Assembly: GCA_964417725.1 (NCBI GenBank) | Contig: CAYQIV010000009.1 | Location: 33,849-97,848, forward strand | DNA length: 64,000 nucleotides | From: an uncultured Chromatiaceae bacterium | Lineage (GTDB): Bacteria > Pseudomonadota > Gammaproteobacteria > Steroidobacterales > GCA-2729495 | Direction of reading: 5' to 3' | Part shown: positions 7,131-22,967 of the stretch, one piece after another | Layout: each line of letters begins with the position of its first letter | How positions within the stretch are numbered: position 1 is the first letter of the stretch | Position numbers and translations under genes: made by a program | Notes under the pieces: model-generated | The model's database searches: none | Told to the model about the DNA's origin: nothing | What the model saw: only the letters and a program-made list of their open reading frames with translations

Positions 7131-7372
7131 TCGTGGCAAAAATACTGCGGCGTTCGCAGGACAGGGTGCTGTTGGGCGTCTGTGGGGGCGTTGCCGAATG
7201 GATGGGGTGGGAAGCGAACTCGGTGCGGCTCGGCTATGCCGTCCTGACGGTGGTCAGTCTTCTGCTACCGGGCATTTTCATCTATACCCTGCTGCTGCTT
7301 TTCATGCGGCCACCCGGATACACGCCCTCACCGCAGAGCCCGCCGCACGACGACGAAGAGCGGGGCCGCTGA
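7127..7372 (+). CDS. PspC-domain membrane protein
   Basis: 81 aa. LLGVCGGVAEWMGWEANSVRLGYAVLTV matches the PspC-domain signature and is followed by a transmembrane helix. The GTG start overlaps the upstream stop (GTGA). Confidence 0.75.
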   Translation: MIVAKILRRSQDRVLLGVCGGVAEWMGWEANSVRLGYAVLTVVSLLLPGIFIYTLLLLFMRPPGYTPSPQSPPHDDEERGR

Positions 7373-7373
7373 C

Positions 7374-8513
7374 TCAACGGTTACCGCTGCGCGCCAGGCG
7401 CTCGAGCACGTCGCCATCCACCGGGAAGGGCTGCCAGTCTCGCGGTGGCGTGTAGACACCCCAGGAAACCATCTTGTTGACTTGATGCTTGACCAGCTCG
7501 AGTTGCTCCGATTCGGTGAACGGCGGGGCATCCATGCACAGGTTCTTCGGGTAGATGCCGCCGCGCGACAGCGCTGCCGCGTAGATGGCATGGTATTCCT
7601 CGACGCGCATGTCCTTGACCAGGTTTTGCCATTGCGCCCTGACGCGAAAATCGCGCAACGCCTCGATGTCGAACAGTCCACTGACCAGCGTCTCGCCACC
7701 GCCCAGATACTCGGAGATGATGCCACCCCGGTAGTCGATGATCTGACTCTTGCCGCAGCTCATCTTGTGACCACCGCCGGGGAACCAGATCCCGCCGATG
7801 TTGGGTGCCATCACGTAGGCCGTGTTGAAGACGGCGTGCGAGCGGTTCTGGATTTCGGCGATCCCGTTGCCCATCCACGGCTCGGGGTACTGGGTGCGCC
7901 AGATGATTTCCGCACCATTCATCGCCAGCCCCCGTGCGGCCTCCGGATAGCTGCCCTCGGCGCAGATCAGCGTGCCGATGTTGCCGATCTCGGTCTTTGC
8001 CACAGGGAAAATGGCCTGGAACAGCTTTACCGGATCGTCACCGTAGCGGCGCAGGTAGAGGTCCCAGATGTCGCTGGGCGCGACGTTCGGTTCCCGCTGG
8101 TAGAACGCCGTCTTGTAGTGTTTGTGGATGACCTCGCCCTGCGGGTCGATGACGAAGGCGATATTGAAGACCCGATCCTCCATGAGCGTCGGGTCCCTGG
8201 CCACCATCTGCGCGATGATGTACACATTGAACTCGCGGGCCAATGCCCCGAGCGCCGCCGTCTCCGGCCCCGGAATCTCCGGCGCAACCTCCCGGCAGAT
8301 GCGCAGATGCTCGTCCCCGCCACCCAGGCACCAGCCACCGATGCCACCTTCAGAAACGGCCACCAGCCTGACCGGCAGGTCGAGGCTGCAGTTCCAGACC
8401 GCATAGCGGATGCTGAGGGCCAGGGCATCGATGTCCTTCATATAGTCATCACGCGTGACCGCCATGCGCGACTCGTTCTGTATGCCAACGGCGGTGTACC
8501 TGAGGGAAGACAT
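7374..8513 (-). CDS. carbon-nitrogen hydrolase (nitrilase superfamily), catalytic triad intact
   Basis: 379 aa. Has Glu (LVAVSEGG), Lys (HKHYKT) and the Cys-x-Glu nucleophile elbow (LICAEGSYPE). Its stop lies 1 nt from the PspC gene stop (convergent). Confidence 0.75.
   Translation of the reverse strand: MSSLRYTAVGIQNESRMAVTRDDYMKDIDALALSIRYAVWNCSLDLPVRLVAVSEGGIGGWCLGGGDEHLRICREVAPEIPGPETAALGALAREFNVYIIAQMVARDPTLMEDRVFNIAFVIDPQGEVIHKHYKTAFYQREPNVAPSDIWDLYLRRYGDDPVKLFQAIFPVAKTEIGNIGTLICAEGSYPEAARGLAMNGAEIIWRTQYPEPWMGNGIAEIQNRSHAVFNTAYVMAPNIGGIWFPGGGHKMSCGKSQIIDYRGGIISEYLGGGETLVSGLFDIEALRDFRVRAQWQNLVKDMRVEEYHAIYAAALSRGGIYPKNLCMDAPPFTESEQLELVKHQVNKMVSWGVYTPPRDWQPFPVDGDVLERLARSGNR
7974..7995 (-). 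repeat. inverted copy of the 22-bp segment at 6530..6551
   Basis: The plus strand reads GCCGATGTTGCCGATCTCGGTC, the exact reverse complement of 6530..6551. Confidence 0.8.
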
Positions 8514-8783: not shown

Positions 8784-11162
8784 ATGCTGATCAGAACCCT
8801 GGTGAACTCACCGCCCCTCACCGGGGAACTGGTGATCACCTATGCCAACAACATGGGCTGGGGCGCGATGGGCATCGCCTTCATCGGCGCACTGGCCATG
8901 TTCGGCGCCATCGACCGCGTCCGCGACGAGGGCAACGCGCACCGGCGCCTGACCTGGCTGGCAATCGCCGGCGTGGTCATGGGGCTGTGCCTGTGGGCCG
9001 CCGGCACCTTCGCCTTGCTCGGCACCTCGATCCCGGGAATCCTCGACGTCCGGCACGTGGCAAAATGGTACGCCGGCATCATCGCGATCATCGGTTGTAC
9101 CGTCATGGTGATGGTGGTCGTACGAGGAACACACCGGATTGCCACCGCGCTGTCCGGTGCGCTGCTGCTGAGTTTGACGAAGTTTCTCGCCACGTTGGCA
9201 CACCTGGATGGCTACGTGAGCCACACGGTCCTGCACCTCAGCGCCGAGCAACTCCGCGCCTCGCTGCCACTGGTTTTCGGCTTCACCACCATCGCCCTGC
9301 TCCTCACCGCCTCGGCCATCCGTCCCGGTCGGCACCACGTGGCGCGGCAGGCCCTCGCCGCCGGGGTGATCAGCGTCGCCCTGACGGGTGGTCACTTTGC
9401 GCTGATGGCTGCGTTGCACGTCTACCAGCCCGCCGAAACCCTGACCACGATCCACAGCACGGTTGCCCCGGCCAGCGCACTGACCACCGTCTTCGCCGTC
9501 GTCGGCCTGTCGATCATCGCCACCGGAATCGGCATCATCGTCGACAGCCGGATGGGGGACCTGCACCGCGGCATCCGGGAGAAGGAGCAACGTTATCGGG
9601 CCGTCATCGACACGATGCACGATGCCCTGCTGGTGATCGATGCGCAGGGCATGATCATCGACTGCAACCCCGCCGCCGCGCACATGTTTTCCACGGATCA
9701 TGACACCTGCAGCCGCATGCCCTTCGCTCTGCTCATGGGTGCGCCCGACCAGACCCTGAGCTTCGAGCATGTACTCGACGGCATCGGCGTGCGCACAGAT
9801 CGCGTGCCAGTGCGCGGCATGCTGAAACGCATGGATGGCGAGCCATTCACCGCCGAGGTCACCGTGACCCCGCTCGAGGGCGCGGGCCAACGGTTCTTCA
9901 GCATGCTCATCCGCGACCTCAGCGCGGAAGAAGAAGCCGCGGCCGAACTTCATCGCATGGCCAGCGCCCTGCACCAGCTGGATGAGTCGGTGGAACTGCT
10001 CGATGTCCATGGGCGGCTGCGCTATGTCAATCCCGCCTTTGAGCGCGTGGTCGGCCTGACGGCTCGTGAAGTGCTCGGGCGCAGACCCGAGGAGTTCTCG
10101 ATCCATGAGGCGCTGGGCGGCAAATACGATGAGATGGTCGCCGCCATCGCCGGCGGCATCCAGTGGCGTGGCGAACTGAAGGTCAGCTACGCCCACAAGC
10201 CCATGCGGGTCTTCGACCTGCTCGTGTCGCCGATCCGCGACGCCGACGGGGCCCTTGGCGGCTGGGTCGTGGTACGCCACGACAAGACCGAGCAGCTCGC
10301 CATGGAGCAGCAACTGCGCCAGTCACAGAAAATGGAATCCGTTGGCCAGCTGGCCGCCGGCATCGCGCACGAGATCAACACACCGGTGCAGTTCGTCAGC
10401 GACAACCTGCGCTTTCTGCGGGAGTCGTTCTCCGACCTGATGAAACCGCTCGGCGAGATCCGGCGGATCATCCACGACAGGCCTCCGGGAGATGCCCTCG
10501 AACGCATCGCGGCACATGCCGCCGACGCGGACATCGACTATCTGGAGGGCGAGATCCCGCGGGCGCTGGATCAGTCTCTGGAAGGCATGCAGCGGGTTGC
10601 CGACATCGTGCGGGCAATGAAGGAGTTTTCCCACCCTTCGACGGAAAGGACCCCGGCCGACCTCGCCAAGGCCATCGCCAGCACGGCTACAGTGGCACGC
10701 AACGAATGGAAGTACGTCGCCGATATCGTCACGGACTTCGACACCGATCTGCCGCTGGTGCCCTGCGTCCTCAACGAGTTCAATCAGGTGATCCTCAACA
10801 TGATCGTCAATGCGGCACACGCCATTGCCGATGTCGTCGGCGATGACGATGCACGGCGCGGAACGATCACCATCCAGACCCGGCGCGTTGGCGACATGGC
10901 GGAGATTCGCATCAGCGACACCGGTGCCGGCATGCCCGAAGAAGTGCGCGCCAGGGTCTTTGACCCCTTCTTCACCACCAAGCCGGTCGGCAAGGGCACA
11001 GGCCAGGGCCTGTCGCTGGCCTGGGATGTCATTGTCAAACGCCATGGCGGTACCATCGGCGTGCAGAGCACGCCGGGTCACGGTGCGTGCTTCGTGATCC
11101 GCCTGCCGTTGCGCGAAACCACGAGCGAGGCCACTGCCGGACAGGCGGTGGCCGCCGCATGA
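8784..11162 (+). CDS. sensor histidine kinase (multi-TM MHYT-like N-terminus, two PAS, HisKA, HATPase_c)
   Basis: 792 aa. About seven N-terminal helices, two PAS-like segments (VIDTMHDALLVIDAQGMIIDCNPAAAHMF; LLDVHGRLRYVNPAFERVVG), H-box AAGIAHEINTPVQF, and the ATP lid DTGAGMPEE...GKGTGQGLS. Confidence 0.85.
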   Translation: MLIRTLVNSPPLTGELVITYANNMGWGAMGIAFIGALAMFGAIDRVRDEGNAHRRLTWLAIAGVVMGLCLWAAGTFALLGTSIPGILDVRHVAKWYAGIIAIIGCTVMVMVVVRGTHRIATALSGALLLSLTKFLATLAHLDGYVSHTVLHLSAEQLRASLPLVFGFTTIALLLTASAIRPGRHHVARQALAAGVISVALTGGHFALMAALHVYQPAETLTTIHSTVAPASALTTVFAVVGLSIIATGIGIIVDSRMGDLHRGIREKEQRYRAVIDTMHDALLVIDAQGMIIDCNPAAAHMFSTDHDTCSRMPFALLMGAPDQTLSFEHVLDGIGVRTDRVPVRGMLKRMDGEPFTAEVTVTPLEGAGQRFFSMLIRDLSAEEEAAAELHRMASALHQLDESVELLDVHGRLRYVNPAFERVVGLTAREVLGRRPEEFSIHEALGGKYDEMVAAIAGGIQWRGELKVSYAHKPMRVFDLLVSPIRDADGALGGWVVVRHDKTEQLAMEQQLRQSQKMESVGQLAAGIAHEINTPVQFVSDNLRFLRESFSDLMKPLGEIRRIIHDRPPGDALERIAAHAADADIDYLEGEIPRALDQSLEGMQRVADIVRAMKEFSHPSTERTPADLAKAIASTATVARNEWKYVADIVTDFDTDLPLVPCVLNEFNQVILNMIVNAAHAIADVVGDDDARRGTITIQTRRVGDMAEIRISDTGAGMPEEVRARVFDPFFTTKPVGKGTGQGLSLAWDVIVKRHGGTIGVQSTPGHGACFVIRLPLRETTSEATAGQAVAAA

Positions 11163-11172
11163 GGACCGAACC

Positions 11173-12375
11173 ATGCTGAGGATTCTCTTCGTCGACGACG
11201 AGCCGCGGGTCCTGGACGGCCTGCGCCGCATGCTGCGCAGCATGCGCAACGAGTGGGACATGATCTTCGTGACAGGCCCGCAGGAAGCCATGGCGGCAAT
11301 GGAAGAAAAAGCGGCAGATGTCGTGGTCAGTGACATGAAGATGCCTGGCATGAACGGTGCCGCCCTTCTCACCGAGATCAAGCGACTCTATCCGGCCACC
11401 GTGCGTCTGATTCTCTCGGGGCAGTCGGATACCGCCGTCACCATGCAGGCCATCGGCTGCAGCCACCAGTTCCTCATGAAGCCATCGGACCCGGAAGTCC
11501 TCAAGCAGGCCATCGGCCGCGCGCACGCTTTGGTGGCCGTCTTCGGCGATCCGCGGCTCGCGGAGATCCTCAACGGCATCAACACGCTGCCCAGCCCCCC
11601 GATGCTCTACCAGAAAATCGTCGACTGCCTGAAGCGCCCCGATGCCACGCTGGTCGATGTCGGTGCCATCATTGCCCAGGACCCGGCAATGACCAGCGCC
11701 ATCCTCAAGCTGGTCAACTCGGCCTACTTCGGCCTGCCGAGACCCATCACCTCCGTGGAACGGGCAATCCCGATCATCGGCATGGAACCCCTCATCAGCC
11801 TGGTGCTCGGCCACCAGCTGTTCAGCGCCTATGGTGACCTCAGTGTGCCTGGCTTCAGCCCGGAAACCCTGTGGCGCAACAGCATCCAGACCGCGGGCAT
11901 CGCCCGCAAGCTGGCGCTGTCCCGGACCGACACCAAGCCGCTCGCCGACGACGCCTTCCTCTCCGGCCTGCTCCACGATGTGGGCAAGCTGGTGCTTGCC
12001 TCCTACTATCCCGATCGCTATGCCGAGATCCTCGCCCGGGCGGCGGCGATCGGCGAGCCGGCCGCCGAGCAGGAGTATCTCAAGACCGGCCATGGTGAGA
12101 TCGGTGCCTACCTGATCGGCCTGTGGGGCCTGCCTCACAGCGTCGTCGAAGCGCTGGCTTTCCACGAGTACCCGTCCACAGCGCCGACGCGCGGCTTCTC
12201 GCTGCCGGCAATCGTCCACATCGCGGAACTGATCACCCGCCATCCCAATGCCGTCTCGCCGGCACAGCTGGGTGGCCGTGCCGACACGGCATGCCTGGCC
12301 GAGATCAACGCCGAGGCCCACTGGCCGGAATGGCTCACGGCACAGTGCACCGACATCCCCACGGCAGTCGCATGA
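11173..12375 (+). CDS. response regulator, receiver + HDOD domain
   Basis: 400 aa. REC domain (ILFVDDEP...VVVSDMKMPGMNG...FLMKP) followed by HDOD features (LPSPPMLYQKIV...IIAQDPAMTSAILKLVNSAYFGL...LLHDVGKLVLA). Confidence 0.85.
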   Translation: MLRILFVDDEPRVLDGLRRMLRSMRNEWDMIFVTGPQEAMAAMEEKAADVVVSDMKMPGMNGAALLTEIKRLYPATVRLILSGQSDTAVTMQAIGCSHQFLMKPSDPEVLKQAIGRAHALVAVFGDPRLAEILNGINTLPSPPMLYQKIVDCLKRPDATLVDVGAIIAQDPAMTSAILKLVNSAYFGLPRPITSVERAIPIIGMEPLISLVLGHQLFSAYGDLSVPGFSPETLWRNSIQTAGIARKLALSRTDTKPLADDAFLSGLLHDVGKLVLASYYPDRYAEILARAAAIGEPAAEQEYLKTGHGEIGAYLIGLWGLPHSVVEALAFHEYPSTAPTRGFSLPAIVHIAELITRHPNAVSPAQLGGRADTACLAEINAEAHWPEWLTAQCTDIPTAVA

Positions 12376-13514
12376 ACAGGCGCGTGCTGTTCGTCGATGA
12401 CGAGCCCAATGTGCTCGACGGCATCCGGCGCCACCTGCGCAAGGAAGTCGACCTGCATACAGCGGTGGGCGCTGCGGCCGGCCTCGAGTTGATGCGTGAA
12501 ACCGGCGAGTTCGCCGTGGTCGTCTCCGACATGCGCATGCCCGAAATGAACGGCAGCCAGTTCCTGGCCAGGGTTCGCAGCGACTGGCCCGACAGCGTGC
12601 GCATGATCCTGTCCGGTCAGTCCGACATCGAAAGCACCATCGCCGCAGTCAATGACGGACACATCTTTCGTTTCCTGACCAAGCCCTGCGACGGCGCCAC
12701 ACTGCTGGCCACCATCCAGGCGGGGCTGCGTCAGTACGAACTGATCCATGCCGAGCGACAGCTGCTCGAGCAGACACTCAGTGGCGCGGTAAAGCTCCTG
12801 ACGGAGATCCTCGGCTTGACCCACCCGGCAGCCCATCAGCGCACCACCCGTCTGCGCCGCTATGCCGAGGCCATGGCCGACGCCATCAGCCTGCGCAGTG
12901 ACTGGGAGTTCCGCCTGGCACTCGATCTCTCCCAGCTCGGCTGTATCACGCTGCCCACGGACATCCTGCGCAAGGTACTGACGGGCGAGCCCATGTCGGG
13001 GGATGAGCGACAGATGTACGACGCCCACCCCGAGCTCGCGGCACGACTGCTCGGCAGCATTCCCCGCCTCGAGCACGTCGCGGAGATCATCGGCAAGCAA
13101 CATCACGTGCCGGCATCGCGTGACATCCAGTGGCAGCCCGATGGCCCGGACCGCTCCATGGCCACCCCGCTCCTCCTCTATCTGGCATCGGAGTTCGACC
13201 GCCGCGTGATCCGTGGCATGAAACCCTCCGTTGCGGCCGAGGAACTGGGCACCCTGCTGCCTGGGCTGCCCCCGGCGATCCAGCGGACGCTGGTCGACAC
13301 GCATGCCGGCATGGAGCGCCAGTTGGTGCCCCGGTCGGTGGCCTTGAGTGGCCTCTTGCCGGGGATGCTGCTCGAAGACGATGTCTGCAGCGCCAAGGGG
13401 GCGTGCGTCGTACCCAGTGGGCAGGTGGTCAGTACATCGATGATCGTCCGCCTGCGCAGCGTCGCGGAAGGCATCGGCATCCGTGAACCCATCAAGGTCC
13501 TGAGCCCCGCCTGA
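12372..13514 (+). CDS. response regulator, receiver + degenerate HD-GYP-like domain
   Basis: ATG at 12372 overlaps the upstream stop (ATGA). REC domain (VLFVDDEP...VVVSDMRMPEMNG...FLTKP). The following HD-GYP-like region has DLSQLG in place of HDIGK and QHHVPASRD in place of HHERWDGSGYP. Confidence 0.75.
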   Translation: MNRRVLFVDDEPNVLDGIRRHLRKEVDLHTAVGAAAGLELMRETGEFAVVVSDMRMPEMNGSQFLARVRSDWPDSVRMILSGQSDIESTIAAVNDGHIFRFLTKPCDGATLLATIQAGLRQYELIHAERQLLEQTLSGAVKLLTEILGLTHPAAHQRTTRLRRYAEAMADAISLRSDWEFRLALDLSQLGCITLPTDILRKVLTGEPMSGDERQMYDAHPELAARLLGSIPRLEHVAEIIGKQHHVPASRDIQWQPDGPDRSMATPLLLYLASEFDRRVIRGMKPSVAAEELGTLLPGLPPAIQRTLVDTHAGMERQLVPRSVALSGLLPGMLLEDDVCSAKGACVVPSGQVVSTSMIVRLRSVAEGIGIREPIKVLSPA

Positions 13515-13537
13515 AGACCGCTCATCCAGGTGATCGC

Positions 13538-14119
13538 ATGAAACAAAGCACCGTACTGCTCGTCGACGACGAACCCAACCTGACCGCCGCCATGAAACGC
13601 GCATTGCGCGACCAGCCATGGAAAGTGATCTGCGCCGGTGGCGCCAGCGAGGCGCTGGAGATCCTCGATCGCGAACCCGTCGACGTGGTCGTCTCCGACG
13701 AGCGGATGCCCGGCATTTCGGGCTGCGAACTGCTGGCACGCGTCCGCACGAGGCACCCCGACACCATTCGCATGGTCCTGTCGGGCCAGGCCAGCCTCGA
13801 TTCGGCCATCAAGGCCATCAACGAGGGTGAGGTCTACCGCTACTTCCTCAAGCCCTGCAATCCGGCAGAACTGGCCACGACGATTCGCCAGGCACTGGCC
13901 CACAAGCAGCTGCTGGCATTGAGCAAGCAACTGCTGCGCGACTACCAGCGCAAGAACCGTCTGCTCCAGGAACTCGAGGAGGTCAACCCCGGGCTGACGC
14001 AACTGAACCTGGATGACGACGGCGCGATCCTCGTCGAGGAGGACGATGATGGCGATATCAATGACTTCCTGGCCAGCCTTGAGCGCGAGATCGCTGGCGC
14101 ACGGAGCCCGCGTACCTGA
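13538..14119 (+). CDS. response regulator, receiver domain with coiled-coil/acidic C-terminal tail
   Basis: 193 aa. REC domain (VLLVDDEP...VVVSDERMPGISG...FLKPC), then LLALSKQLLRDYQRKNRLLQELEE and an acidic stretch. Confidence 0.85.
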   Translation: MKQSTVLLVDDEPNLTAAMKRALRDQPWKVICAGGASEALEILDREPVDVVVSDERMPGISGCELLARVRTRHPDTIRMVLSGQASLDSAIKAINEGEVYRYFLKPCNPAELATTIRQALAHKQLLALSKQLLRDYQRKNRLLQELEEVNPGLTQLNLDDDGAILVEEDDDGDINDFLASLEREIAGARSPRT

Positions 14120-14129
14120 GCGTGGCCGG

Positions 14130-14768
14130 TCAGTCGTCAGCCGGGTAGTAGTGATCGAGACAGAATGCGCACAGGGTGTGGCTGGTCTCGACGGGTGACT
14201 TTTCCACCCATTCCGGCACCCAGTCCCAACCACCGGCCTCAACCATATTCTCGACCCGCCGGCAGTGCGCGCACTGGTGGATGATGCCATCGGCATCGGC
14301 GTAGCGCGCCTTGTCCGGCCCACAAACGGGGCGCCCCCGTTCGGTCATCGATTGTTCGGCGACCAGCGAGTTGACCACGAGCAGGCCGACTGCACCCGGC
14401 AGGCGGTAAAGGGTCATCAGGAAACGCCGGTATCGCGCCGGGCTGGAGCATTCGTACTCATGCTGGAGCGGGGTTTTCGGGCCTGCGCCCTCGCCGGCGA
14501 CCGCCCGCTGGTAGAGCCCGGTGTAATAGGCCTTCAGCGCCGCCGGAACGGCATCAAGCACGCAGCGTTCGAGTGGCCACTCACGGAGGATCGCAGGTTG
14601 CCCGCCATTATCGGCGGCAAAATGCAGCCAGGCGGGGTTGACGTAGATGAGGTCAAGATCCGGGTCCAGCCCGTAGACCGAATCGCGATGGGCCTCCATC
14701 GCCGCAAGGTCCCAGCGGGCCAGCACCTCGCGGTAGGCCGGACTGCAACGGTGTTCGAAGCTATCCAT
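14130..14768 (-). CDS. PAS-like sensor protein with C-terminal CxxC...HxxCxxC module
   Basis: 212 aa. PAS-like core (DLIYVNPAWLHFAADNGG...EYECSSPARYRRFLMTLYRL...LLVVNSLV) plus C-terminal IHQCAHCRRV...WDWVPEWV...SHTLCAFCLDHYY. Confidence 0.6.
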   Translation of the reverse strand: MDSFEHRCSPAYREVLARWDLAAMEAHRDSVYGLDPDLDLIYVNPAWLHFAADNGGQPAILREWPLERCVLDAVPAALKAYYTGLYQRAVAGEGAGPKTPLQHEYECSSPARYRRFLMTLYRLPGAVGLLVVNSLVAEQSMTERGRPVCGPDKARYADADGIIHQCAHCRRVENMVEAGGWDWVPEWVEKSPVETSHTLCAFCLDHYYPADD

Positions 14769-14872: not shown

Positions 14873-17668
14873 TCAGCCTGGCGCCCTGGCGGAACCTATC
14901 TTCTCGAAGTTGCAGGTGAAATCGGCAAAGGTCTGGTTGGGTTCGAAGGCCAGCGGCCGGTAGGTGATATGCCCATAGCCGCTGACCAGCGAGGTGCGCT
15001 TGATGAGTGCGGCGCTCGAGATGACGGCACCGAAGTTCTGGCGCCGCGGAAACAGCATCGGGTCCCAGCCGTGATACATGAACAGCGTTCCGGGCGGCAT
15101 CATGCTGCTGACGTGCGCCATGGCATCGAATGCGCCGAGCTTGTTGTAGACCCGCAGCATGTCTCCATCGACCACGCCACGTGCCGCGGCATCGACCGGG
15201 CTGACGTAGACATCCGGTTGCCCGCGACGCAGGCTGAGCAGCAGCGCATCGTCGGTCCACATGTTGTGGATGCCATGACGGACGTGCCCCATGATCATCT
15301 GCAAAGGATAGCCGGGCAGGCGCAACGGTTCACGGTATGCCGGCAGTTGCTCGTCCTCGGACAGGAACCAGGGATGGTCCAGGTAGTACTGCTGGCGCCC
15401 CGTCAGCGTCGGATAGGGCTCGTGCTTTTCGACAGCGCGCAACATGACCGAGCCATACGGCGACCCGGGTCCGTACACGACCCGGTCGGTGTCTTCATTG
15501 CGCATCAGTCCGCGACGGGCCATTTCGGCGAACGGCACCTTTGGCACACCTTCGTCCCTGCCGATCAGGTATTCGATGACATCGACCGTATCGGTGATGC
15601 GGCCATCCATCGTGTACTGGGCGTGGTAACGCGTGAAGTCGCGACTGATCGGCATGCCGTGGAATTCATCGGTGATCGGTGCGACATTGCGCTGCCCGGC
15701 CCGCCGACTGATTGCCGCCGCCAGCCGCTCCAGAACCCGCCAGTCATCGACCGCCTCGCCGAGCGGCGGAACCGCGGCATCGAGCACCTGAACATAGGGT
15801 GTGCGCGCCTCGAGCATGTAGTCCTTGCGCTCGTAATGGTGGGCAACCGGCAACACGTAATCAGAGTACATCGCCGTGACACCCATGTCGGGTGCCAGGG
15901 TGACGATGGTCTCGAGTTGGGCGAGCCACTTCTCGCGCCAACGCCCGCCGGCCGAGCGCCAGGCGGCGGCATTGCTCCCGGCATAGATGGCCATCTTCCA
16001 CGGGGTGGCCGCGTAATCGGGCCAACCACCGGTCTCTGTGGCCTCCCTGAACGCGGCATCGACCTCGTCGGCCAGGGCCTTGCCGTAGACCTGCTCGTTG
16101 AGGTCACGGCCCTCCGCGTGGACGTAATCCCAGCGCGCCGCCGTCGCCACGCGGAAGGTCGGTGGATTGCCATTGAACATGAAGTCGATCTGGCTGTCCG
16201 TGCGCCCCAGGTTCTCGAGCTGCAGCCCACCACCCGCCTTGCCGAGGTTTCCCGTCAGTGAAAGCAGCAGCATGAATGCCCGCTGGACCAGGTCGCCATG
16301 CAGCGACTTGCACATTCGGTAACCCGTGAAGATCATCGCCGGCCTGGCAGCAGCGAACGTCCGCGCCAGCCAGCGGATGTTGTCGGCGTGCACGCCACAG
16401 AGCGTCGCCGCCTTCTCCGGCACGTAGGCCGCGGCCCGTTGGCGCAGCAGGGAGTAGACCGGCATCACCCGGATGACGCCTTCGCGTGTCTCGACGTCGA
16501 AGCGGCCTTCCAGCACCGGCCGGATCGCACCAAGCGCCAGCGATCCCCCGGGAATGACCGGTTCCGGTGAACCGGGCGGCGGCGGCGGATTGCCGGTCGC
16601 CGGCGCCTGCACCAGCTTGTCCGTGACCTCGTCCCAGACGTAGAAGACATTGTCCCTGGCATCGGGCGCTGCGCTGAGGTCCGTTTCGCGCAGGTAGCGG
16701 CCGGTGTCCGCCCGAACCAGAAATGGCAGGTCGGTCTGCTCGCGCACGTAATCGCGGTCGACCAGCCGTTCGCTGAGGATGACCTCGATCATGCTCATGG
16801 CGAGTGCGGCATCCGTGCCAGGCCGGGGATTGATCCAGCGGCTGGCATGCATGGCAGTCGGCGTGAACTCGGGCGAGATCGCGATGACCTCCGTGCCGTT
16901 GTAGCGCGCCTCCCAGAAAAAATGCGCATCGGGGATGCGCGTCACCGCCGGGTTGCAGAACCAGACCAGGCAGCACTTCGACTTGAATACGGCCGCCATG
17001 GTATCGCCGAGCAACGCCTCACCGACGGTCATGTAGACACCGGTCGGCAGGTCACCAACGCCGGCGAAGGCCTCGGGAAGCTCGATGCCCGACAACGCGG
17101 CAAAGCGCCCCAGCGCGGCGAAAGATGCCCGCTTGAGGACCATCTGCGTGCCGAGGTCCATGCTGATCGAACGCGGCCCATGCGCCACCGAGTTATCGAT
17201 GAACCGGTCAGCGATCTCGTCCATCGCCTGTTCCCAGCTGATGCGCTCCCATCTGCCTTCGCCGCGCGCACCGAGGCGTTTCATCGGGTACAGGACCCGC
17301 TGTGCGCCATACATGTACTTGGCATGGCGCAGGCCCTTCTGGCAGCCGCGTGGGCCGTAGTCCGGCGCGTCCTCGGAGCGGCCGTATTCGCCCTGTTGCT
17401 CCTCGCGCCAGACGATGTTGTTCTTCACATAGACGTTGAACGCACAGTTGCCCGTGCAATTGGTCCCGTGGGTGCCGCGCACGACGCGATCCCAGGTCCA
17501 CTTGTGGCGCATCAGGTCTTCCCACCCGCGATACGGCTGCGGCTCGCCGCCATCGATGGCGGCCGCCGACACGTACTTGAGCGACAGGGTTGTCGCGAGT
17601 GCGCCGGACCCCGCGAGAAAGTGTCGCCGGTCGAACCGGGTGGATTCCATCGAGGGATTCGTTGCCAT
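14873..17668 (-). CDS. Tat-exported molybdopterin oxidoreductase, type II DMSO-reductase family catalytic subunit (NarG/EbdA/SerA-like)
   Basis: 931 aa. Twin-arginine leader STRFDRRHFLAGSGALA, FS0 motif HGTNCTGNCAF...GPRGCQKG (H-x3-C-x3-C...C), and WDRVVRGTHG...VYVKNNIVWREEQ resembling the NarG N-terminus. Confidence 0.8.
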   Translation of the reverse strand: MATNPSMESTRFDRRHFLAGSGALATTLSLKYVSAAAIDGGEPQPYRGWEDLMRHKWTWDRVVRGTHGTNCTGNCAFNVYVKNNIVWREEQQGEYGRSEDAPDYGPRGCQKGLRHAKYMYGAQRVLYPMKRLGARGEGRWERISWEQAMDEIADRFIDNSVAHGPRSISMDLGTQMVLKRASFAALGRFAALSGIELPEAFAGVGDLPTGVYMTVGEALLGDTMAAVFKSKCCLVWFCNPAVTRIPDAHFFWEARYNGTEVIAISPEFTPTAMHASRWINPRPGTDAALAMSMIEVILSERLVDRDYVREQTDLPFLVRADTGRYLRETDLSAAPDARDNVFYVWDEVTDKLVQAPATGNPPPPPGSPEPVIPGGSLALGAIRPVLEGRFDVETREGVIRVMPVYSLLRQRAAAYVPEKAATLCGVHADNIRWLARTFAAARPAMIFTGYRMCKSLHGDLVQRAFMLLLSLTGNLGKAGGGLQLENLGRTDSQIDFMFNGNPPTFRVATAARWDYVHAEGRDLNEQVYGKALADEVDAAFREATETGGWPDYAATPWKMAIYAGSNAAAWRSAGGRWREKWLAQLETIVTLAPDMGVTAMYSDYVLPVAHHYERKDYMLEARTPYVQVLDAAVPPLGEAVDDWRVLERLAAAISRRAGQRNVAPITDEFHGMPISRDFTRYHAQYTMDGRITDTVDVIEYLIGRDEGVPKVPFAEMARRGLMRNEDTDRVVYGPGSPYGSVMLRAVEKHEPYPTLTGRQQYYLDHPWFLSEDEQLPAYREPLRLPGYPLQMIMGHVRHGIHNMWTDDALLLSLRRGQPDVYVSPVDAAARGVVDGDMLRVYNKLGAFDAMAHVSSMMPPGTLFMYHGWDPMLFPRRQNFGAVISSAALIKRTSLVSGYGHITYRPLAFEPNQTFADFTCNFEKIGSARAPG

Positions 17669-17670
17669 GT

Positions 17671-18375
17671 TCAGGGTCCTGGTCGGGTCATCGTCATTGT
17701 CGGCGCGCCGGCCGCCGGCTCGGCCGGCAAGCGGCCATGGTCGCCCGGCGCAATGAAGGGTTGGTCGCCGCCGATGAGCAGCTGCGCCTCAATCAGCGGC
17801 AAACGGTCATTGCCGAAGTACATGTCGGTACCGAGGAAAAAAGTCGGGGAACCGAAGCCACCGCGGGCCACCAGCGTATCGCAGTTGTCCTGGAGTGCGG
17901 CCGCCGTATCAGCCGCAGCGACGGCACTGCGGAAGCGGGCGCGGTCGAGCCCCACCGCCACGGCAATGTCATCGATGACATCTTCGGCCAGGATGTCCCT
18001 GCCCTCCGTGAAATACGCGCGGAAAACGGCGTGGGCGTAATCCGGCCCCTGACCGGCGGCACTCGCCACGATCGCCCCACGCTGGGCGCGCTCCGGTGTC
18101 ACCGGCCAACGGGGTGGCAAGTGGATGCGCACGCCGCAATACCGCGCCCAATCCTGGAGGTCCTTGGCCGAATATGCTGCCTTGCGCGGGTTCGGGTCGA
18201 GCCGCGTGCCGGGAAAACTGCGGTTGGCCTCGGCGTGGACCCTGTCGACGAGGATCGGCAGGTAGCGCACGGTGGCACCGGTGCGCATCGCCACTTCGCG
18301 GATGCGCACGAATGCCAGATACGTCCATGGGCAGGAGCAGCAGTAGTAGAAATCGATTTCCCTGGCCGTCGTCAT
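17671..18375 (-). CDS. DsbA-like thioredoxin-fold protein (2-hydroxychromene-2-carboxylate isomerase family)
   Basis: ATG at 18375 overlaps the ligase stop (ATGA). 234 aa. MTTAREIDFYYCCSCPWTYLAF...GFGSPTFFLGTDMYFGNDRL is typical of the HCCA-isomerase/DsbA family. No signal peptide. Its stop lies 2 nt before the molybdoenzyme ATG. Confidence 0.7.
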   Translation of the reverse strand: MTTAREIDFYYCCSCPWTYLAFVRIREVAMRTGATVRYLPILVDRVHAEANRSFPGTRLDPNPRKAAYSAKDLQDWARYCGVRIHLPPRWPVTPERAQRGAIVASAAGQGPDYAHAVFRAYFTEGRDILAEDVIDDIAVAVGLDRARFRSAVAAADTAAALQDNCDTLVARGGFGSPTFFLGTDMYFGNDRLPLIEAQLLIGGDQPFIAPGDHGRLPAEPAAGAPTMTMTRPGP

Positions 18376-19910
18376 CGCACGCGGTCGCGCAACGCCGTCT
18401 TCAGCACCTTGCCGTTGGCATTGCGGGGAATTTCCCCAAGGAAATCGAAATGTTTGGGCACCTTCATGCGTGACACCTGCCCACTGCACCAGTCGCTGAT
18501 CGCCGCCGGGTCCAGCGATTGGCCGGGACGACAGACGACAAACGCCTTGAGGACCTCGCCCCACTTGTCGTCGGGCACGCCGATGATGGCCACATCCGCC
18601 ACCGCCGGGTGGCGCAGCAGTACGTCCTCGACCTCACGGGGATAGATGTTGACCCCGCCTGAAATCACCATGTCCTTCTTGCGGTCGACGATGTAGAGGT
18701 AGCCTTCGGCATCCCGCCGGGCCAGGTCACCGACACTCACCCAACCGTCCTGGAAGGCCTCGGCAGTGTCTTCTGGCCTTCCAAAATAACCATTGAAAAG
18801 ATAAGGACTTGAAGAAAATAGCTCGCCCACTTCATCAATATCGCAGATCCGGCCATCCGGGCGGCGAACCTCGACCTGCGTACACGGGAAGGGCTGTCCC
18901 ACGCAGCGTACCTTGCGTATTTGGTCTGGTGGCCGGAGGTTCGAGACGATGCCAGCCTCCGTCGAGCCATAGGTTTCATGAAGGCGTCCGGGGCCGAAGT
19001 AATCGACCAGCACCTCCTTCATGGGCTGGGGCATGGCCGCCGCGTTGGAGATCACCGTGCGCAACGTGTTGTCGCGGGCCGCATCGCGCTGCGCTGCTCC
19101 GAGGGACATCATCGAGTGAAAGTGTGTCGGCACGCCGAAAAACCCCGTGAACGGCGCCTCGCCGAGGCGGCGCATGACGAGTTCCGGCTCGAACCGGTCG
19201 ATGATCTCGGCATGGCCACCGAAAAAGATCGGGGCCAGCGAGAACACCATGCCCGCACCGTGGCACATCGGCGCGATGGCCAGGAAACGATCGTCCGGCC
19301 CGTAGCAGCCATACTCCACCGCCATGCCGAAAAGCGTCAGGATCCGCGAGCGGTGCGAAACCAGCACGCCCTTGGGCTTGCCCGTGGTCCCCGACGTGTA
19401 GGGGATCGTGAACGTGTCCCACTCCGCCACATTCCGGGGAATGGCCGCCGGACGCGCCCGACCGAGCTGTTGCGTCAACTCATCGCCGATGACGATGATG
19501 TGGCGCACGCTCTCGAAGCGACAATCGCGCAGCGCCTCGGCATATTCCGCATCGGCAAACAGGACCAGGGCGCGGGCATCGTTGCAGATGGCGACGATCT
19601 CCGGCACCGCGAGACGCGGGTTGACGGTGGCCAGCGCGATGCCGGCCTGGGATGCACCGATGACGATCTCGAGGTACTCGATCGAGTTCCTGGCGACGAT
19701 GGCGCCATGCTGGCCGGGTGCAAGGCCGATGCCCGTCCCCAGGAATGCGCTGACGCGGTCGATGCGATCGACGAGTTCCGCGTAGGTGCGGGTCTTCGAC
19801 CCGTGCCGGCACGCCACCTTGGCCGGGTCGCGCGTCATCGCGGCACGGACGCCGGCAGCCAGCGAAAGGTGCTGGAACGATGCGGGCAGAACGGCAGGCG
19901 TCGGTGTCAT
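18372..19910 (-). CDS. AMP-dependent synthetase/ligase (acyl- or aryl-CoA ligase)
   Basis: ATG at 19910 is preceded by AGGA. Motifs YTSGTTGKPKGV, GYFGRPEDT and DRKKDMVISGG are present, plus a C-terminal ...PRNANGKVLK. Confidence 0.85.
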   Translation of the reverse strand: MTPTPAVLPASFQHLSLAAGVRAAMTRDPAKVACRHGSKTRTYAELVDRIDRVSAFLGTGIGLAPGQHGAIVARNSIEYLEIVIGASQAGIALATVNPRLAVPEIVAICNDARALVLFADAEYAEALRDCRFESVRHIIVIGDELTQQLGRARPAAIPRNVAEWDTFTIPYTSGTTGKPKGVLVSHRSRILTLFGMAVEYGCYGPDDRFLAIAPMCHGAGMVFSLAPIFFGGHAEIIDRFEPELVMRRLGEAPFTGFFGVPTHFHSMMSLGAAQRDAARDNTLRTVISNAAAMPQPMKEVLVDYFGPGRLHETYGSTEAGIVSNLRPPDQIRKVRCVGQPFPCTQVEVRRPDGRICDIDEVGELFSSSPYLFNGYFGRPEDTAEAFQDGWVSVGDLARRDAEGYLYIVDRKKDMVISGGVNIYPREVEDVLLRHPAVADVAIIGVPDDKWGEVLKAFVVCRPGQSLDPAAISDWCSGQVSRMKVPKHFDFLGEIPRNANGKVLKTALRDRVR

Positions 19911-19914
19911 TCCT

Positions 19915-20808
19915 TCACTCCTGGCCTGGCAGGCGGAACACGCGCAGCGCATTGTCGCGCATCAGCAAGCGGTGCGCCTCCCCGCTCAGCCCCAGCGCAT
20001 CGACTTCTCGGACCGCGCGCTCCGGGTCGATGACCGGCCAGTCGGTGCCAAACATCACCTTGTGGCGCCCGTACGTGCTGGCGTAATGCACGAATGATGG
20101 CGGCCAGTAGCGCGGCGCATAGGCATCACCTGCCGCGTAGACATTCTCGTGCTTCCAGCACATGGAGATCATTTCCTCCGTCCACGGGATGCCGATGTGG
20201 ATGCCGATGAGGCGCAGTTCGGGGAAATCGATGGCCACCTGATCGAGGCAGATCGGGCGGCCAACCGAGGGCAGGCGCCGGTGGCGCGAGTACACCAGGT
20301 TGTGTCCGACCTGCATCATGATCGGGATATCGAGCTCGCAACACTTGGCATAGTAGGGATAGTACTTGGCGTGATCCGGCGCCAGCCCACACCAGTGCGG
20401 GTAGAGGTGGGCGCCGACGAAACCGTACTCGCGCACCGCCTGCTCGAGATCCCGCAGGCCCTGCATGCCGCGGAAGGGGTCGATACCGGCCAGCCCGGAA
20501 AAACGCGCGGGGTGGTTTTGACAAACCTCGTGGACGCGCTGGTAGGGGATCTCGAAGCCCCCCCGCACGTTGATGTCGCCGGCCCGCACGGCGATGAGCA
20601 GCGAGCGCTCGATGCCCGCCCGGTCCATGCGCGCCAGATAATCCTCGACGGACACGCCACCCCGGATATCCTCCGGCATGCGGACCTGGCGTTTGAAGTC
20701 CTCGTCGAGCCCCGTCTGGCCGGCCATGACTTCCTGCGGGGTAAAGAGGTTGCAGACGATGTCGATCGTGCCATCGCGCGATGTCGAAGGATTGCTGCTA
20801 CTGACCAT
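19915..20808 (-). CDS. amidohydrolase-2 family (ACMSD/LigW-like TIM-barrel hydrolase or decarboxylase)
   Basis: 297 aa from ATG 20808. Contains VGAHLYPH, MMQVGH and FGTDWP metal-site-like motifs. The first strand reads IDIVCNL instead of the usual D-x-H-x-H. The start choice overlaps the upstream gene by 11 nt. Confidence 0.65.
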   Translation of the reverse strand: MVSSSNPSTSRDGTIDIVCNLFTPQEVMAGQTGLDEDFKRQVRMPEDIRGGVSVEDYLARMDRAGIERSLLIAVRAGDINVRGGFEIPYQRVHEVCQNHPARFSGLAGIDPFRGMQGLRDLEQAVREYGFVGAHLYPHWCGLAPDHAKYYPYYAKCCELDIPIMMQVGHNLVYSRHRRLPSVGRPICLDQVAIDFPELRLIGIHIGIPWTEEMISMCWKHENVYAAGDAYAPRYWPPSFVHYASTYGRHKVMFGTDWPVIDPERAVREVDALGLSGEAHRLLMRDNALRVFRLPGQE

Positions 20809-21709
20809 CGAGATCCCACTCGCCAGCAGAACGGGAGCGCACGGGCAACCCGGCAATCACCGGGGCCTGATACTTGTCGCGCGGGTCGTAGTTGATTGGT
20901 TTGCCCTCGACGACGATGCGCTCGTTCACCGTGATCCAGTTGATCAGCGAGCCGTCCAGGCGGAAGAAGCCCGTCCAGCCGCGCTCTTCACCCGCCACGA
21001 AATGACCGTGCTTGACGCGCGCCGGCCTGAAAAAATAGGTACCGGCGTCGAGCGTGCCGAAGTTGTAGACCAGATGGCCATCGAGGCTGTAGGCCTCCTC
21101 GAACACCGGGTGGTGCACCATGCGGTTGTCCGACCAGCCCGGCGGTGCCCAGGCCAGCATCGTGACAAACCCCTTGTCGTTGTGCCCCGGCGGCGCCGGG
21201 TCATGATAGAGGAGCTTGAGCTTGAGAAACCGCTGCGTATCGCCCTCATAGGCGTTGGGCATCCACTCCATGCGCGAGGTGTCGACAATCGTCAATTGCC
21301 CTTGCTCGCTCGAAGCCGTGTTGCCACCCCGGGGCACGAAACGGCCGCGGTCCTTCGACGAAAGCGAGAAGCCCCAATCACCAAACTCACGGAAGATCAG
21401 CACATCGGTACCGGCGGCCGCCTCCATCGGGGGGATGCACAGCCCGGCGGGTGCGCGAAAATATCCGCCCTTGCCGAGAAAGCGGTCACCAATCCGGATG
21501 GTTCCGGACATGACGTACCACTCGACGTCCGCATGATGATAGCCGGCCTCCCGACGCCACGCCTTGTCGAACACGACGCGCGTCGACGCGGCACCGTTCT
21601 CCTCGTCGTAGGACAGGTTTCTCTGCCGCACCTTGCCGTCGCTGCGGGCAAGTTCCGCCTCGTGCCAGACGAGGTCCGCTTCCTGGATCAGTTCCACATG
21701 AGGGCGCAC
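20798..21709 (-). CDS. bicupin protein
   Basis: 303 aa with an internal duplication: YHHADVEWYVMSG...GGYFRAPAG and VHHPVFEEAYSLDG...GTYFFRPARV. Both are cupin-like HH-x3-E motifs. Confidence 0.6.
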   Translation of the reverse strand: MRPHVELIQEADLVWHEAELARSDGKVRQRNLSYDEENGAASTRVVFDKAWRREAGYHHADVEWYVMSGTIRIGDRFLGKGGYFRAPAGLCIPPMEAAAGTDVLIFREFGDWGFSLSSKDRGRFVPRGGNTASSEQGQLTIVDTSRMEWMPNAYEGDTQRFLKLKLLYHDPAPPGHNDKGFVTMLAWAPPGWSDNRMVHHPVFEEAYSLDGHLVYNFGTLDAGTYFFRPARVKHGHFVAGEERGWTGFFRLDGSLINWITVNERIVVEGKPINYDPRDKYQAPVIAGLPVRSRSAGEWDLDGQ

Positions 21710-21743: not shown

Positions 21744-22106
21744 TCAGCGCGAGCCCCGGCGCCGCGTACCGGCCACCTTCCTGCGGGACTGGCTGGCGGT
21801 CTTGCGGGCCTTCTTCTTCACCTTTTTTCCTGGCTGACTGCCCGGCCGGCGCCTGCCGGCGGGACGGGTTTCCTCGAGCAGCAGGAAGTCGTCGCACAGG
21901 GCCCGCGTCTGGCGGCACGCCTCGATGAAGTCCTCCATCACCGGCCCGCTGACCGGCACCTGCCCAGGGGCCGGCGCCGCCCGCTTGAGGGCCCGCCAGT
22001 CCTTGTTCAGCCGCCGCAGGGTCTGCTCCACGGCATTGGCGACGTACCGGGCATGGAAATCCCAGTCACCGCGGATGGCGCCCAGATCCACCGTCTTGTC
22101 GGTCAT
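21744..22106 (-). CDS. hypothetical small protein with Arg/Lys-rich C-terminal tail
   Basis: ATG at 22106 (MTDKTVDLGAIRGDWDFHARY...). 120 aa. Tail RPAGRRRPGSQPGKKVKKKARKTASQSRRKVAGTRRRGSR. No family recognised. Confidence 0.5.
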   Translation of the reverse strand: MTDKTVDLGAIRGDWDFHARYVANAVEQTLRRLNKDWRALKRAAPAPGQVPVSGPVMEDFIEACRQTRALCDDFLLLEETRPAGRRRPGSQPGKKVKKKARKTASQSRRKVAGTRRRGSR

Positions 22107-22292: not shown

Positions 22293-22967
22293 ATGTCGTC
22301 GTATCTGCTGTGGAACTACCTGCATATCCTGATGTTCGTTTTCTGGGTCGGCACCGACATGGGGGTCTACCTCGCCGCCCGCAAATCGACCGACTCCCGG
22401 CTCGATTTCATGACGCGCGTGCTGCTGCTGCATCTGGCACTGCGCATCGAGCTGCTGCCACGAACGATGTGGAAGGCGGCCCTGCCCTTTGGCGTCATGC
22501 TGTCGCGCGACCTCGGCCTCATCGCGATCAGCGACACCGGCGTGGTACTGGTATGGCTTTTCAGCCTGGTCTGGTGGGGCATCAGCATGACGGGTGCGTG
22601 GTACTACGACCGGCCGTTCGGGCACCGGTTGGCGCGGATCACCAATTGGCTGACGAGCGCGGTCGGCGTCGCGCTGATCGCGCTGTGCGCGACGTCATGG
22701 GCCGGCCTCGGACCGTTCACGGCGGACGCGACGTGGCTGCAACTCAAGGTTGCGCTGTATGGCGTGATCAACCTGCTGGTGGTCGCCATGATCGTGGTGT
22801 TCGACCCGCTGGGCGCAGCCTTCGGCAGGCTGGCCGTGGAGGGATCGACGGCGGAGATCGAAGCGATCATCCGCAACACCATGGGCCGATCGACGGTCGT
22901 GATCTGGTCGACGTACGCGCTGATCTGCATCGTCGGGTTCATCGGCACGACGCGGATCCTTGGCTGA
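22293..22967 (+). CDS. integral membrane protein, function unknown
   Basis: ATG at 22293 (MSSYLLWNYLHILMFVFWVGTDMGVYL...). 224 aa with about six hydrophobic helices. Confidence 0.6.
   Translation: MSSYLLWNYLHILMFVFWVGTDMGVYLAARKSTDSRLDFMTRVLLLHLALRIELLPRTMWKAALPFGVMLSRDLGLIAISDTGVVLVWLFSLVWWGISMTGAWYYDRPFGHRLARITNWLTSAVGVALIALCATSWAGLGPFTADATWLQLKVALYGVINLLVVAMIVVFDPLGAAFGRLAVEGSTAEIEAIIRNTMGRSTVVIWSTYALICIVGFIGTTRILG

Follow-up and report, generated by a model that had tools for sequence, protein, structure and literature searches.

Introduction

The subject of this work is a gene for a catalytic (alpha) subunit of the type II dimethyl sulfoxide (DMSO) reductase family, which lies on a 64,000-nucleotide stretch of contig CAYQIV010000009.1 from an uncultured Chromatiaceae bacterium; the whole 64-kb stretch is called the window below. 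The closest solved relative of this alpha subunit is PcrA of the perchlorate reductase PcrAB of Azospira suillum (PDB 4ydd, 5e7o), with an alignment over residues 43-923 and an identity of 32-33% over the Foldseek alignment. PcrA resembles the window alpha in its twin-arginine translocation (Tat) leader, in the H-x3-C-x3-C…C motif of the iron-sulfur (Fe-S) cluster FS0, and in the Asp ligand that lies in a GD(H/L)P segment. PcrAB was crystallised as an alpha-beta complex without a haem-b gamma subunit, which matches the layout of the beta-bearing members of the clade described here. The two differ in gene order, as pcrA adjoins pcrB, whereas the window alpha gene adjoins no beta gene. The second-best solved relative is EbdA of ethylbenzene dehydrogenase. 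This enzyme (EbdABC) and the alkyl-chain hydroxylases, such as steroid C25 dehydrogenase (S25DH) and p-cymene dehydrogenase, are periplasmic type II enzymes that hydroxylate organic compounds with water and feed cytoplasmic pathways starting with a coenzyme A (CoA) ligase.

Two described systems offer models for an alpha subunit that has no beta gene beside it. The first is found in Sterolibacterium denitrificans, in which eight S25DH-like alpha genes are accompanied by fewer beta/gamma sets and two chaperone genes, and in which alpha1, alpha2, and alpha3 each yielded active enzyme together with beta3 and gamma3 (PMC6016249, PMC6153880). We take this arrangement as our model for the beta-less alpha: there are fewer beta/gamma sets than alphas, several alphas use one beta/gamma pair in common, and the chaperone gene is located elsewhere. 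The S25DH enzymes belong to a different clade from the window alpha, which matched no steroid-type equivalog. Moreover, the sharing was biochemically shown in S. denitrificans, whereas here we infer it from the gene content of related genomes, and it was seen there in one organism, whereas the beta-less operon is conserved across many species. The second model is NapA/NapAB, the periplasmic nitrate reductase with one or two subunits, a Tat-exported enzyme with the molybdenum (Mo) cofactor Mo-bisPGD (PGD being pyranopterin guanine dinucleotide), in which FS0 passes electrons directly to a small cytochrome and no Fe-S beta subunit takes part. NapA has a Cys rather than an Asp as its Mo ligand and an FS0 motif of the C-x2-C-x3-C type, and it is distant from the window alpha (E ~1e-9, TM ~0.5, TM being the template modelling score).

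Identity of the alpha subunit

The gene and the main features of its product are:

14873..17668, minus strand: catalytic alpha subunit of the type II DMSO reductase family, 931 aa; intact open reading frame (ORF) with an ATG start
17558..17668, minus strand: Tat signal region, residues ~1-37 (…TRFDRRHFLAGSGALATTLSLKYVSAAA), recognised from the sequence, with a putative cleavage site
17342..17470, minus strand: FS0 [4Fe-4S] ligand motif H67-x3-C71-x3-C75 ... C109; the four ligands are invariant
17051..17053, minus strand: Asp206 in GVGDLP, predicted Mo ligand from the alignment with PcrA

The Mo-bisPGD-binding domains were recognised by Pfam (Molybdopterin PF00384, E 2.6e-39; Molydop_binding PF01568, E 8.5e-17), and the NCBIfam family of type II alpha subunits, TIGR03479, matched residues 20-918 with its profile positions 7-909 (817.3 bits, E 1.6e-245). 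This score falls short of the curated cut-off of 984.75 bits despite the full-length match, so the protein represents a divergent clade of the superfamily. The equivalog models for EbdA (NF042978, 405 bits against a cut-off of 2000) and NarG (TIGR01580, 297 bits against 1084) were not reached. The nearest solved relatives by sequence are PcrA (E 6e-160), EbdA (E 1.9e-114), and NarG, with NxrA also among the top ranks. A Foldseek search with an AlphaFold2 (AF2) model of moderate quality (mean predicted local distance difference test score, pLDDT, of 66) gave the same ranking, with TM values of 0.70-0.73 for PcrA, 0.65 for EbdA, and 0.65 for NarG. The type II assignment, which a first-pass annotation had made from the letters of the sequence, is therefore borne out by Pfam, by TIGR03479, and by the nearest relatives in both sequence and fold.

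The same annotation had pointed to a Tat leader, an FS0 motif, and an Asp in GDLP, and all three are present and invariant in an alignment of 26 homologues (55-81% identity). In the leader, the motif DRRHFL precedes a hydrophobic segment and SAAA; neither arginine of the motif (R14, R15) varies, and the alphas of beta-bearing relatives have the same leader. The window alpha is thus predicted to be exported by the Tat system. The FS0 ligands H67, C71, C75, and C109 are equally invariant, and the motif occurs also in outgroups. Residue D206 (GDLP) lies opposite Asp170 of PcrA (GDHP), with positions counted along the HMMER alignment, and is the predicted protein ligand to Mo. The PcrA gate residues Phe164 and Tyr165, of which Phe164 is named as a gate in PDB titles, correspond to Ala200 and Phe201 in the window alpha. 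Since the aromatic gate is not kept, the enzyme is not a perchlorate reductase. Judged by its sequence, the protein is a type II DMSO-reductase-family alpha and is under strong purifying selection.

Partner genes in the window

In the window, 52 genes were called with a codon-usage model and annotated with Pfam and NCBIfam, the nuo operon excepted. A profile hidden Markov model (HMM) of 80 beta subunits of the family gave no match in the six-frame translation of the 64 kb, where the top result was NuoI with E 0.38. Likewise, no NarJ/TorD-like chaperone (PF02613) was found in the 64 kb with an HMM of eight NarJ-like proteins of the family. Among the called genes (nuo operon not scanned), none was assigned by Pfam to Fer4_11, Nitrate_red_del, EB_dh, or Nitrate_red_gam, and no called gene contains a CxxCH haem-c motif. 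Of the components of a canonical alpha-beta(-gamma-delta) operon, the adjacent beta, the haem-b gamma, and the chaperone gene are all missing from the window. The earlier observation that the 64 kb hold none of these genes was confirmed by the profile searches for beta and NarJ-like proteins and by Pfam for gamma.

Beta subunits in related genomes

By scanning one genome per GTDB species, 314 stretches encoding relatives of the window alpha were found, and the locus counts given here refer to the best 80 of these 314. The 80 loci all come from metagenome-assembled genomes (MAGs), chiefly of Gammaproteobacteria, Chromatiales, and Woeseia, and to a lesser extent of Alphaproteobacteria and Marinimicrobia. 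When cluster representatives at 50% identity were searched exhaustively, just one full-length sequence proved close (57% identity, 1216 bits), after which identity falls to 38-45% and the score to 652 bits or less. This steep drop indicates that the clade is tight and distinct within the TIGR03479 superfamily; it is also monophyletic in a neighbour-joining (NJ) tree built without bootstrap support. No description of the clade was found in the literature on DUF4437, on Woeseia with type II DMSO reductase, or on orphan alpha subunits. The clade is uncharacterised yet widespread, as the 314 stretches come from genomes that each represent one species of Proteobacteria or Marinimicrobia from sediment, freshwater, or marine habitats.

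A beta gene of the TIGR03478 type lies directly 3' of the alpha gene in 31 of the 80 loci (tblastn and HMM). A NarJ-like gene is placed between alpha and beta in eight of the 80, as well as in the loci L092 and L095-L098, and in P0118 the alpha gene is followed by a NarJ-like gene and then by the N-terminus of a beta. Three layouts can be told apart. In the B-type, a CN_hydrolase gene precedes alpha and beta, often with a transporter of the major facilitator superfamily (MFS) behind them. The layout called "other" consists of MarR, alpha, NarJ-like, beta, an MFS transporter that ends in a fused cytochrome c, and a TonB-dependent receptor; in one variant, genes for HiPIP (a high-potential iron-sulfur protein) and MoeA are close by. 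The window type, with 42 loci, has the order cupin, amidohydrolase, CoA ligase, DsbA-like protein, and alpha, and 40 of these 42 loci have no beta. Counting all beta-less loci, the sequence downstream of alpha extends for at least 1.5 kb in 35 and for at least 9 kb in 29. The two window-type loci that keep a beta, L040 and L045, share the upstream operon of the window; in L040 the order is DsbA-like, alpha, beta, and then two membrane proteins, u271 and u224, and its beta passes TIGR03478 (502 bits, cut-off 480.7). A haem-b gamma of the EbdC or NarI type was found in none of the annotated loci of relatives, in which the clade differs from EbdABC. The absence of gamma from the window is therefore uninformative and looks like a trait of the whole clade.

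The first-pass annotation had presented the gene as an orphan without partners and had named partners adjacent in close relatives as what would speak against this view. Such partners were found, the beta in 31 and the NarJ-like gene in 8 of the 80 loci, which weakens the partnerless reading. The word orphan still describes one sub-lineage, in which 40 loci share the beta-less operon, but it does not describe the clade.

Evidence on a possible remote or shared beta

Two loci each were found in eleven genomes, and in ten of these genomes a beta-less locus is accompanied by another locus. This second locus encodes alpha and beta in nine of the ten cases, and in the tenth the sequence ends 5 nt after alpha. 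Among the nine are the closed chromosomes CP070671.1 and OZ244928.1, which are both of the complete chromosomes with two loci, and in which the loci lie ~1 Mb apart. The NJ tree places two beta-bearing members, L040 and L026, inside the clade of window-type alphas, L026 even within the window's own subclade. This nesting would mean that adjacency to beta is ancestral and was then lost.

An alignment of 46 beta-less and 29 beta-bearing alphas contains neither indels specific to one group nor fixed differences between the groups. The same residue is conserved in both groups at 229 alignment columns, two sites are conserved solely in the beta-bearing and eight solely in the beta-less alphas, and the mean column entropies are similar (0.905 against 0.944). 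In this alignment the beta-less alphas show no sign of a decayed beta interface. The comparison also bears on the idea that the loss of beta left the gene as a silent or decaying paralogue, for which the missing usual partner gene could be taken as a sign. This idea is extremely improbable, because the reading frame is intact, a 100% identical copy of the protein is encoded on 18 public contigs, the 229 columns are conserved alike in both groups, the cofactor ligands are all invariant, and the order of the operon is kept in ~40 species.

The beta subunits are more alike than the alphas beside which they are encoded. Over 300 locus pairs, the mean identity is 76.6% for beta and 64.1% for alpha, and beta has the higher value in 98% of pairs. 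Furthermore, L040 encodes a beta that shares 87% identity with the beta of a B-like alpha, although the two alphas are just 54% identical. As far as such sequence comparisons reach, they suggest that a beta can pass from one alpha subfamily to another and work with more than one of them.

We hypothesize that the window alpha is a split-operon alpha, the beta of which is encoded elsewhere and shared in trans, and we consider the chances of this to be about even. A remote or shared beta is the most economical reading of the data, and the finding is most likely a known enzyme class whose beta is not adjacent, for which a split operon has precedent. The first-pass annotation had left three possibilities, namely remote partners, a neighbour acting as a substitute, and different wiring. 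This division was logically sound; the least exotic of the three, the remote partner, is best supported, and different wiring is a minority reading.

Several points weigh against a beta shared in trans. The beta was seen in related genomes, whereas the window organism itself is covered by 64 kb alone. A second locus was found in just 10 of ~46 beta-less genomes, and ~36 gave none among the best 80 of 314 loci, the genomes being mostly incomplete MAGs. The beta-less operon is stable over ~40 species, the alphas of which have diverged to ~56% identity, and such stability is also expected from an enzyme that works independently of beta. In the NJ tree, which lacks support values, the beta-bearing members are scattered in the beta-less clade, and several losses or regains are needed to explain this. 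Assembly in trans also requires co-expression, and a chaperone gene is known for none of the beta-less sub-lineage.

Possible electron transfer without a beta subunit

The stability of the operon leads to the alternative that the alpha is exported alone and that FS0 trades electrons directly with a small soluble carrier, either a monohaem cytochrome c or a high-potential iron-sulfur protein (HiPIP), in the manner of NapA/NapAB. The beta-less operon is kept in 40 of 42 loci of the DsbA type, no beta lies within 9-10 kb in 29 of the beta-less loci or within the 64 kb of the window, 9 of 28 beta-less loci have a monohaem cytochrome c gene some kilobases downstream, and a HiPIP gene lies near another member of the family. 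On the other hand, no cytochrome c is encoded in the window, and beta-bearing relatives have the cytochrome too, even fused to the MFS transporter, so that it would act after beta and not instead of it. The beta-less alphas also show no relaxed surface, indel, or fixed substitution, and we know of no type II alpha with demonstrated activity in the absence of beta. Taken together, we regard this alternative as unlikely. It is likewise doubtful that the sub-lineage of ~40 species as a whole has evolved a type II alpha free of Fe-S beta, with electrons passing from FS0 to a soluble cytochrome c, to HiPIP, or to the u224/u271 membrane proteins. If it were true, this would be the first single-subunit type II enzyme. 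In either case, the stable beta-less operon is a natural experiment on whether type II alphas can share a beta or do without one, and the answer on beta sharing bears on the expression of type II enzymes for biocatalysis.

Proposed function

Normally, the clade has an alpha gene directly before the gene of a four-cluster Fe-S beta, in some cases separated by that of a NarJ-like chaperone, and no haem-b gamma. Under the hypothesis of a beta shared in trans, this layout was changed. In the window sub-lineage, the beta gene would have dropped out of the operon, leaving alpha at the end of a cupin/amidohydrolase/CoA-ligase/2-hydroxychromene-2-carboxylate (HCCA)-isomerase-like operon. The alpha would then pair with a beta that is encoded elsewhere, typically beside a paralogous alpha, and the folded alpha-beta complex would be exported to the periplasm. 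There, the complex could carry out an O2-independent oxidation or hydroxylation of an imported organic substrate, similar to EbdA, and electrons would leave via beta to a c-type cytochrome, free or MFS-fused, or to HiPIP. The product may be taken up and processed in the cytoplasm by the CoA ligase, the amidohydrolase, the cupin, and the HCCA-isomerase-like enzyme, with the CN-hydrolases and the UbiD decarboxylase acting further on. The assembly in trans, the direction in which catalysis runs, the cytochrome as acceptor, and the class of substrate are points that we infer. The gene company, which includes MFS transporters like aromatic-acid symporters and TonB-dependent receptors, suggests that the substrate is an aromatic or heterocyclic, possibly N-containing, acid. 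More generally, the conserved links to CN-hydrolases, to MFS transporters (some of them cytochrome c-fused), to TonB-dependent receptors, and to aromatic-type catabolic genes point to an as yet undescribed O2-independent oxidation of an organic compound.

The same gene company can be viewed differently, since the neighbours are hydrolases, an isomerase, and a decarboxylase and not respiratory components. The net reaction might be non-redox, such as a hydration or transhydroxylation, with FS0 being structural or tuning the active site, and no electron partner would then be needed. Acetylene hydratase (2e7z) is the example, as it is a monomeric member of the wider family and a detectable relative of the window alpha, and it retains its Fe-S cluster in a non-redox enzyme. 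The earlier argument that an intact FS0 implies an electron-transfer partner is therefore not strictly valid. Nevertheless, a non-redox reaction seems improbable here, because the closest proteins by sequence and fold are the redox enzymes PcrA, EbdA, and NarG and not acetylene hydratase, the sister subfamilies retain a full four-cluster beta and cytochrome c domains, and the sequence constraints are equal in beta-less and beta-bearing alphas.

Operon and neighbouring genes

The alpha gene is the last gene of a tight minus-strand operon, the junctions of which range from overlaps of 4-11 nt to a gap of 4 nt. The genes of the operon and those next to it are:

17671..18375, minus strand: DsbA-fold protein like HCCA isomerase, 234 aa (Pfam DSBA 1e-32; PDB 2imd E 1.2e-19)
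18372..19910, minus strand: AMP-forming acyl-CoA ligase, 512 aa (family annotation)
19915..20808, minus strand: Amidohydro_2-family protein, 297 aa (Pfam)
20798..21709, minus strand: DUF4437 / ChrR-type cupin, 303 aa, encoded first or second in the operon (Pfam, synteny)
21744..22106, minus strand: small ORF g19, 120 aa, which ends in a basic tail and also lies upstream of the cupin in 12 relatives
22293..22967, plus strand: u224, a polytopic membrane protein that is conserved and belongs to no Pfam family, divergent and upstream of the operon
14130..14768, minus strand: g13, 212 aa, with a PAS-like N-terminus and a CxxC…CxxC C-terminus, downstream of alpha and co-directional
8784..14119, plus strand: PAS histidine kinase and three response regulators (family annotation, synteny)

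Three of these gene products could be imagined to stand in for beta or gamma: the translationally coupled DsbA-fold protein, which would reach the periplasm by Tat hitchhiking, u224, and the Cys-rich g13. The DsbA-like gene is present in 42 of the 80 loci, and it ends 2 nt ahead of the alpha start codon in the window, with a spacing of 2-6 nt when the relatives are included. However, the protein matches 2imd over its full length, has no signal peptide, and contains a single conserved Cys in a monothiol CPW(S/T) motif and no metal-cluster motif, so it looks like a catabolic isomerase and not a redox partner. In addition, L040 and L045 have the DsbA-like gene and beta together. In favour of u224, it accompanies 29 of the 30 DsbA-type loci that have enough upstream sequence, and in L040 it directly follows beta together with its paralogue u271. 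Against this, u224 tracks the accessory catabolic genes and not alpha, is absent from B-type loci, and belongs to no detectable cofactor family. The protein g13 has two CxxC pairs, but it is missing from each of the 80 loci, lacks a signal peptide, and gave no match in Pfam, NCBIfam, or PDB; it probably belongs with the adjacent two-component genes. Substitution by an unrelated neighbour is therefore very improbable.

Two other roles were considered for u224 and rejected. The idea of a NarJ-like chaperone came from its length of 224 aa, but it is a polytopic membrane protein with no similarity to chaperones. A CopD/HemJ-like haem-binding anchor was dismissed as well, as hhalign against a CopD-like protein of L082 gave a probability of 0.2% and no consistent Pfam match was obtained in 28 members; a single-sequence AF2 model of u224 (pLDDT 49) was unusable. 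The proteins u224 and u271 (L007:4141-4956) are paralogous polytopic membrane proteins with no Pfam family and have the common motif LH[IV]xxFVxWxGxDxGV.

Further upstream of the two-component genes in the numbering of the window lies an accessory block (4597..8513):

4597-6030, plus strand: UbiD-family decarboxylase
6027-7130, plus strand: CN_hydrolase
7127-7372, plus strand: PspC-domain protein
7374-8513, minus strand: CN_hydrolase

This block is syntenic with the alpha operon, even in distant relatives, and both CN-hydrolases are unusually long. Window-type loci are surrounded by a larger conserved block with u271, u224, two CN-hydrolases, and a UbiD-family decarboxylase, and many of them also have an MFS transporter, a monohaem cytochrome c, and a Tat-type amidohydrolase. 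The window keeps u224, the CN-hydrolases, and UbiD and is without the cytochrome, the MFS transporter, and the second amidohydrolase. In relatives, the position corresponding to 8784-14768 of the window is occupied by the monohaem cytochrome c and the Tat-type amidohydrolase, the latter being a 474-aa Amidohydro_2 protein with an internal Tat-like motif, SRRAFL. The remainder of the window is housekeeping, with glycogen genes, ligA, smc, pnp, infB, nusA, and a block with the order and sizes of a nuo operon. Promoter and terminator scans gave counts no different from the shuffled level. The C-terminal tail of g19 is very basic (KKVKKKARK…RRKVAGTRRRGSR).

Further observations on related loci

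In B-type paralogues (L080:10004-12790 and other B-type loci), an Arg replaces the FS0 His at the position of window residue 67, and a His sits one residue before the second Cys (window residue 74). The region reads GSRG[IL]NCTGHC in the B-type, against GTHGTNCTGNC, which suggests, at the level of the motif, that FS0 coordination in the B-type paralogues is shifted or altered.

A bilin-reductase-like gene (PF05996, ferredoxin-dependent) overlaps the alpha stop codon in eight window-type loci, for example L009:12772-13461, and is absent from the window. Apparent DsbA-alpha fusions in L010, L013, and L017 were recognised as artefacts, as a TGA stop is located 1-2 codons before the ATG. In P0105, a gene call of 1237 aa contains AMP-binding and molybdopterin domains; it is probably no real fusion but a call that ran together the genes for the CoA ligase, the DsbA-like protein, and alpha.

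The MFS partners were also considered as NarK-type transporters, which would have provided a link to nitrite or nitrate, and were found to be DHA2/EmrB-like or aromatic-acid-symporter-like instead. The MFS-cytochrome c fusions at L061:8432-10405, L083:14358-16289, and L072:6231-8204 are of the DHA2/EmrB type, have a length of ~650 aa, and are followed by a TonB-dependent receptor gene. A transporter tethered to a periplasmic haem domain beside a molybdoenzyme is unusual. In the closed genome with L097 (CP129466.1:2504976-2525965), the gene order is HiPIP, MoeA (on the opposite strand), alpha, NarJ-like, and beta, and an MFS transporter, a TonB-dependent receptor, and a CN-hydrolase are encoded within 10 kb after beta.

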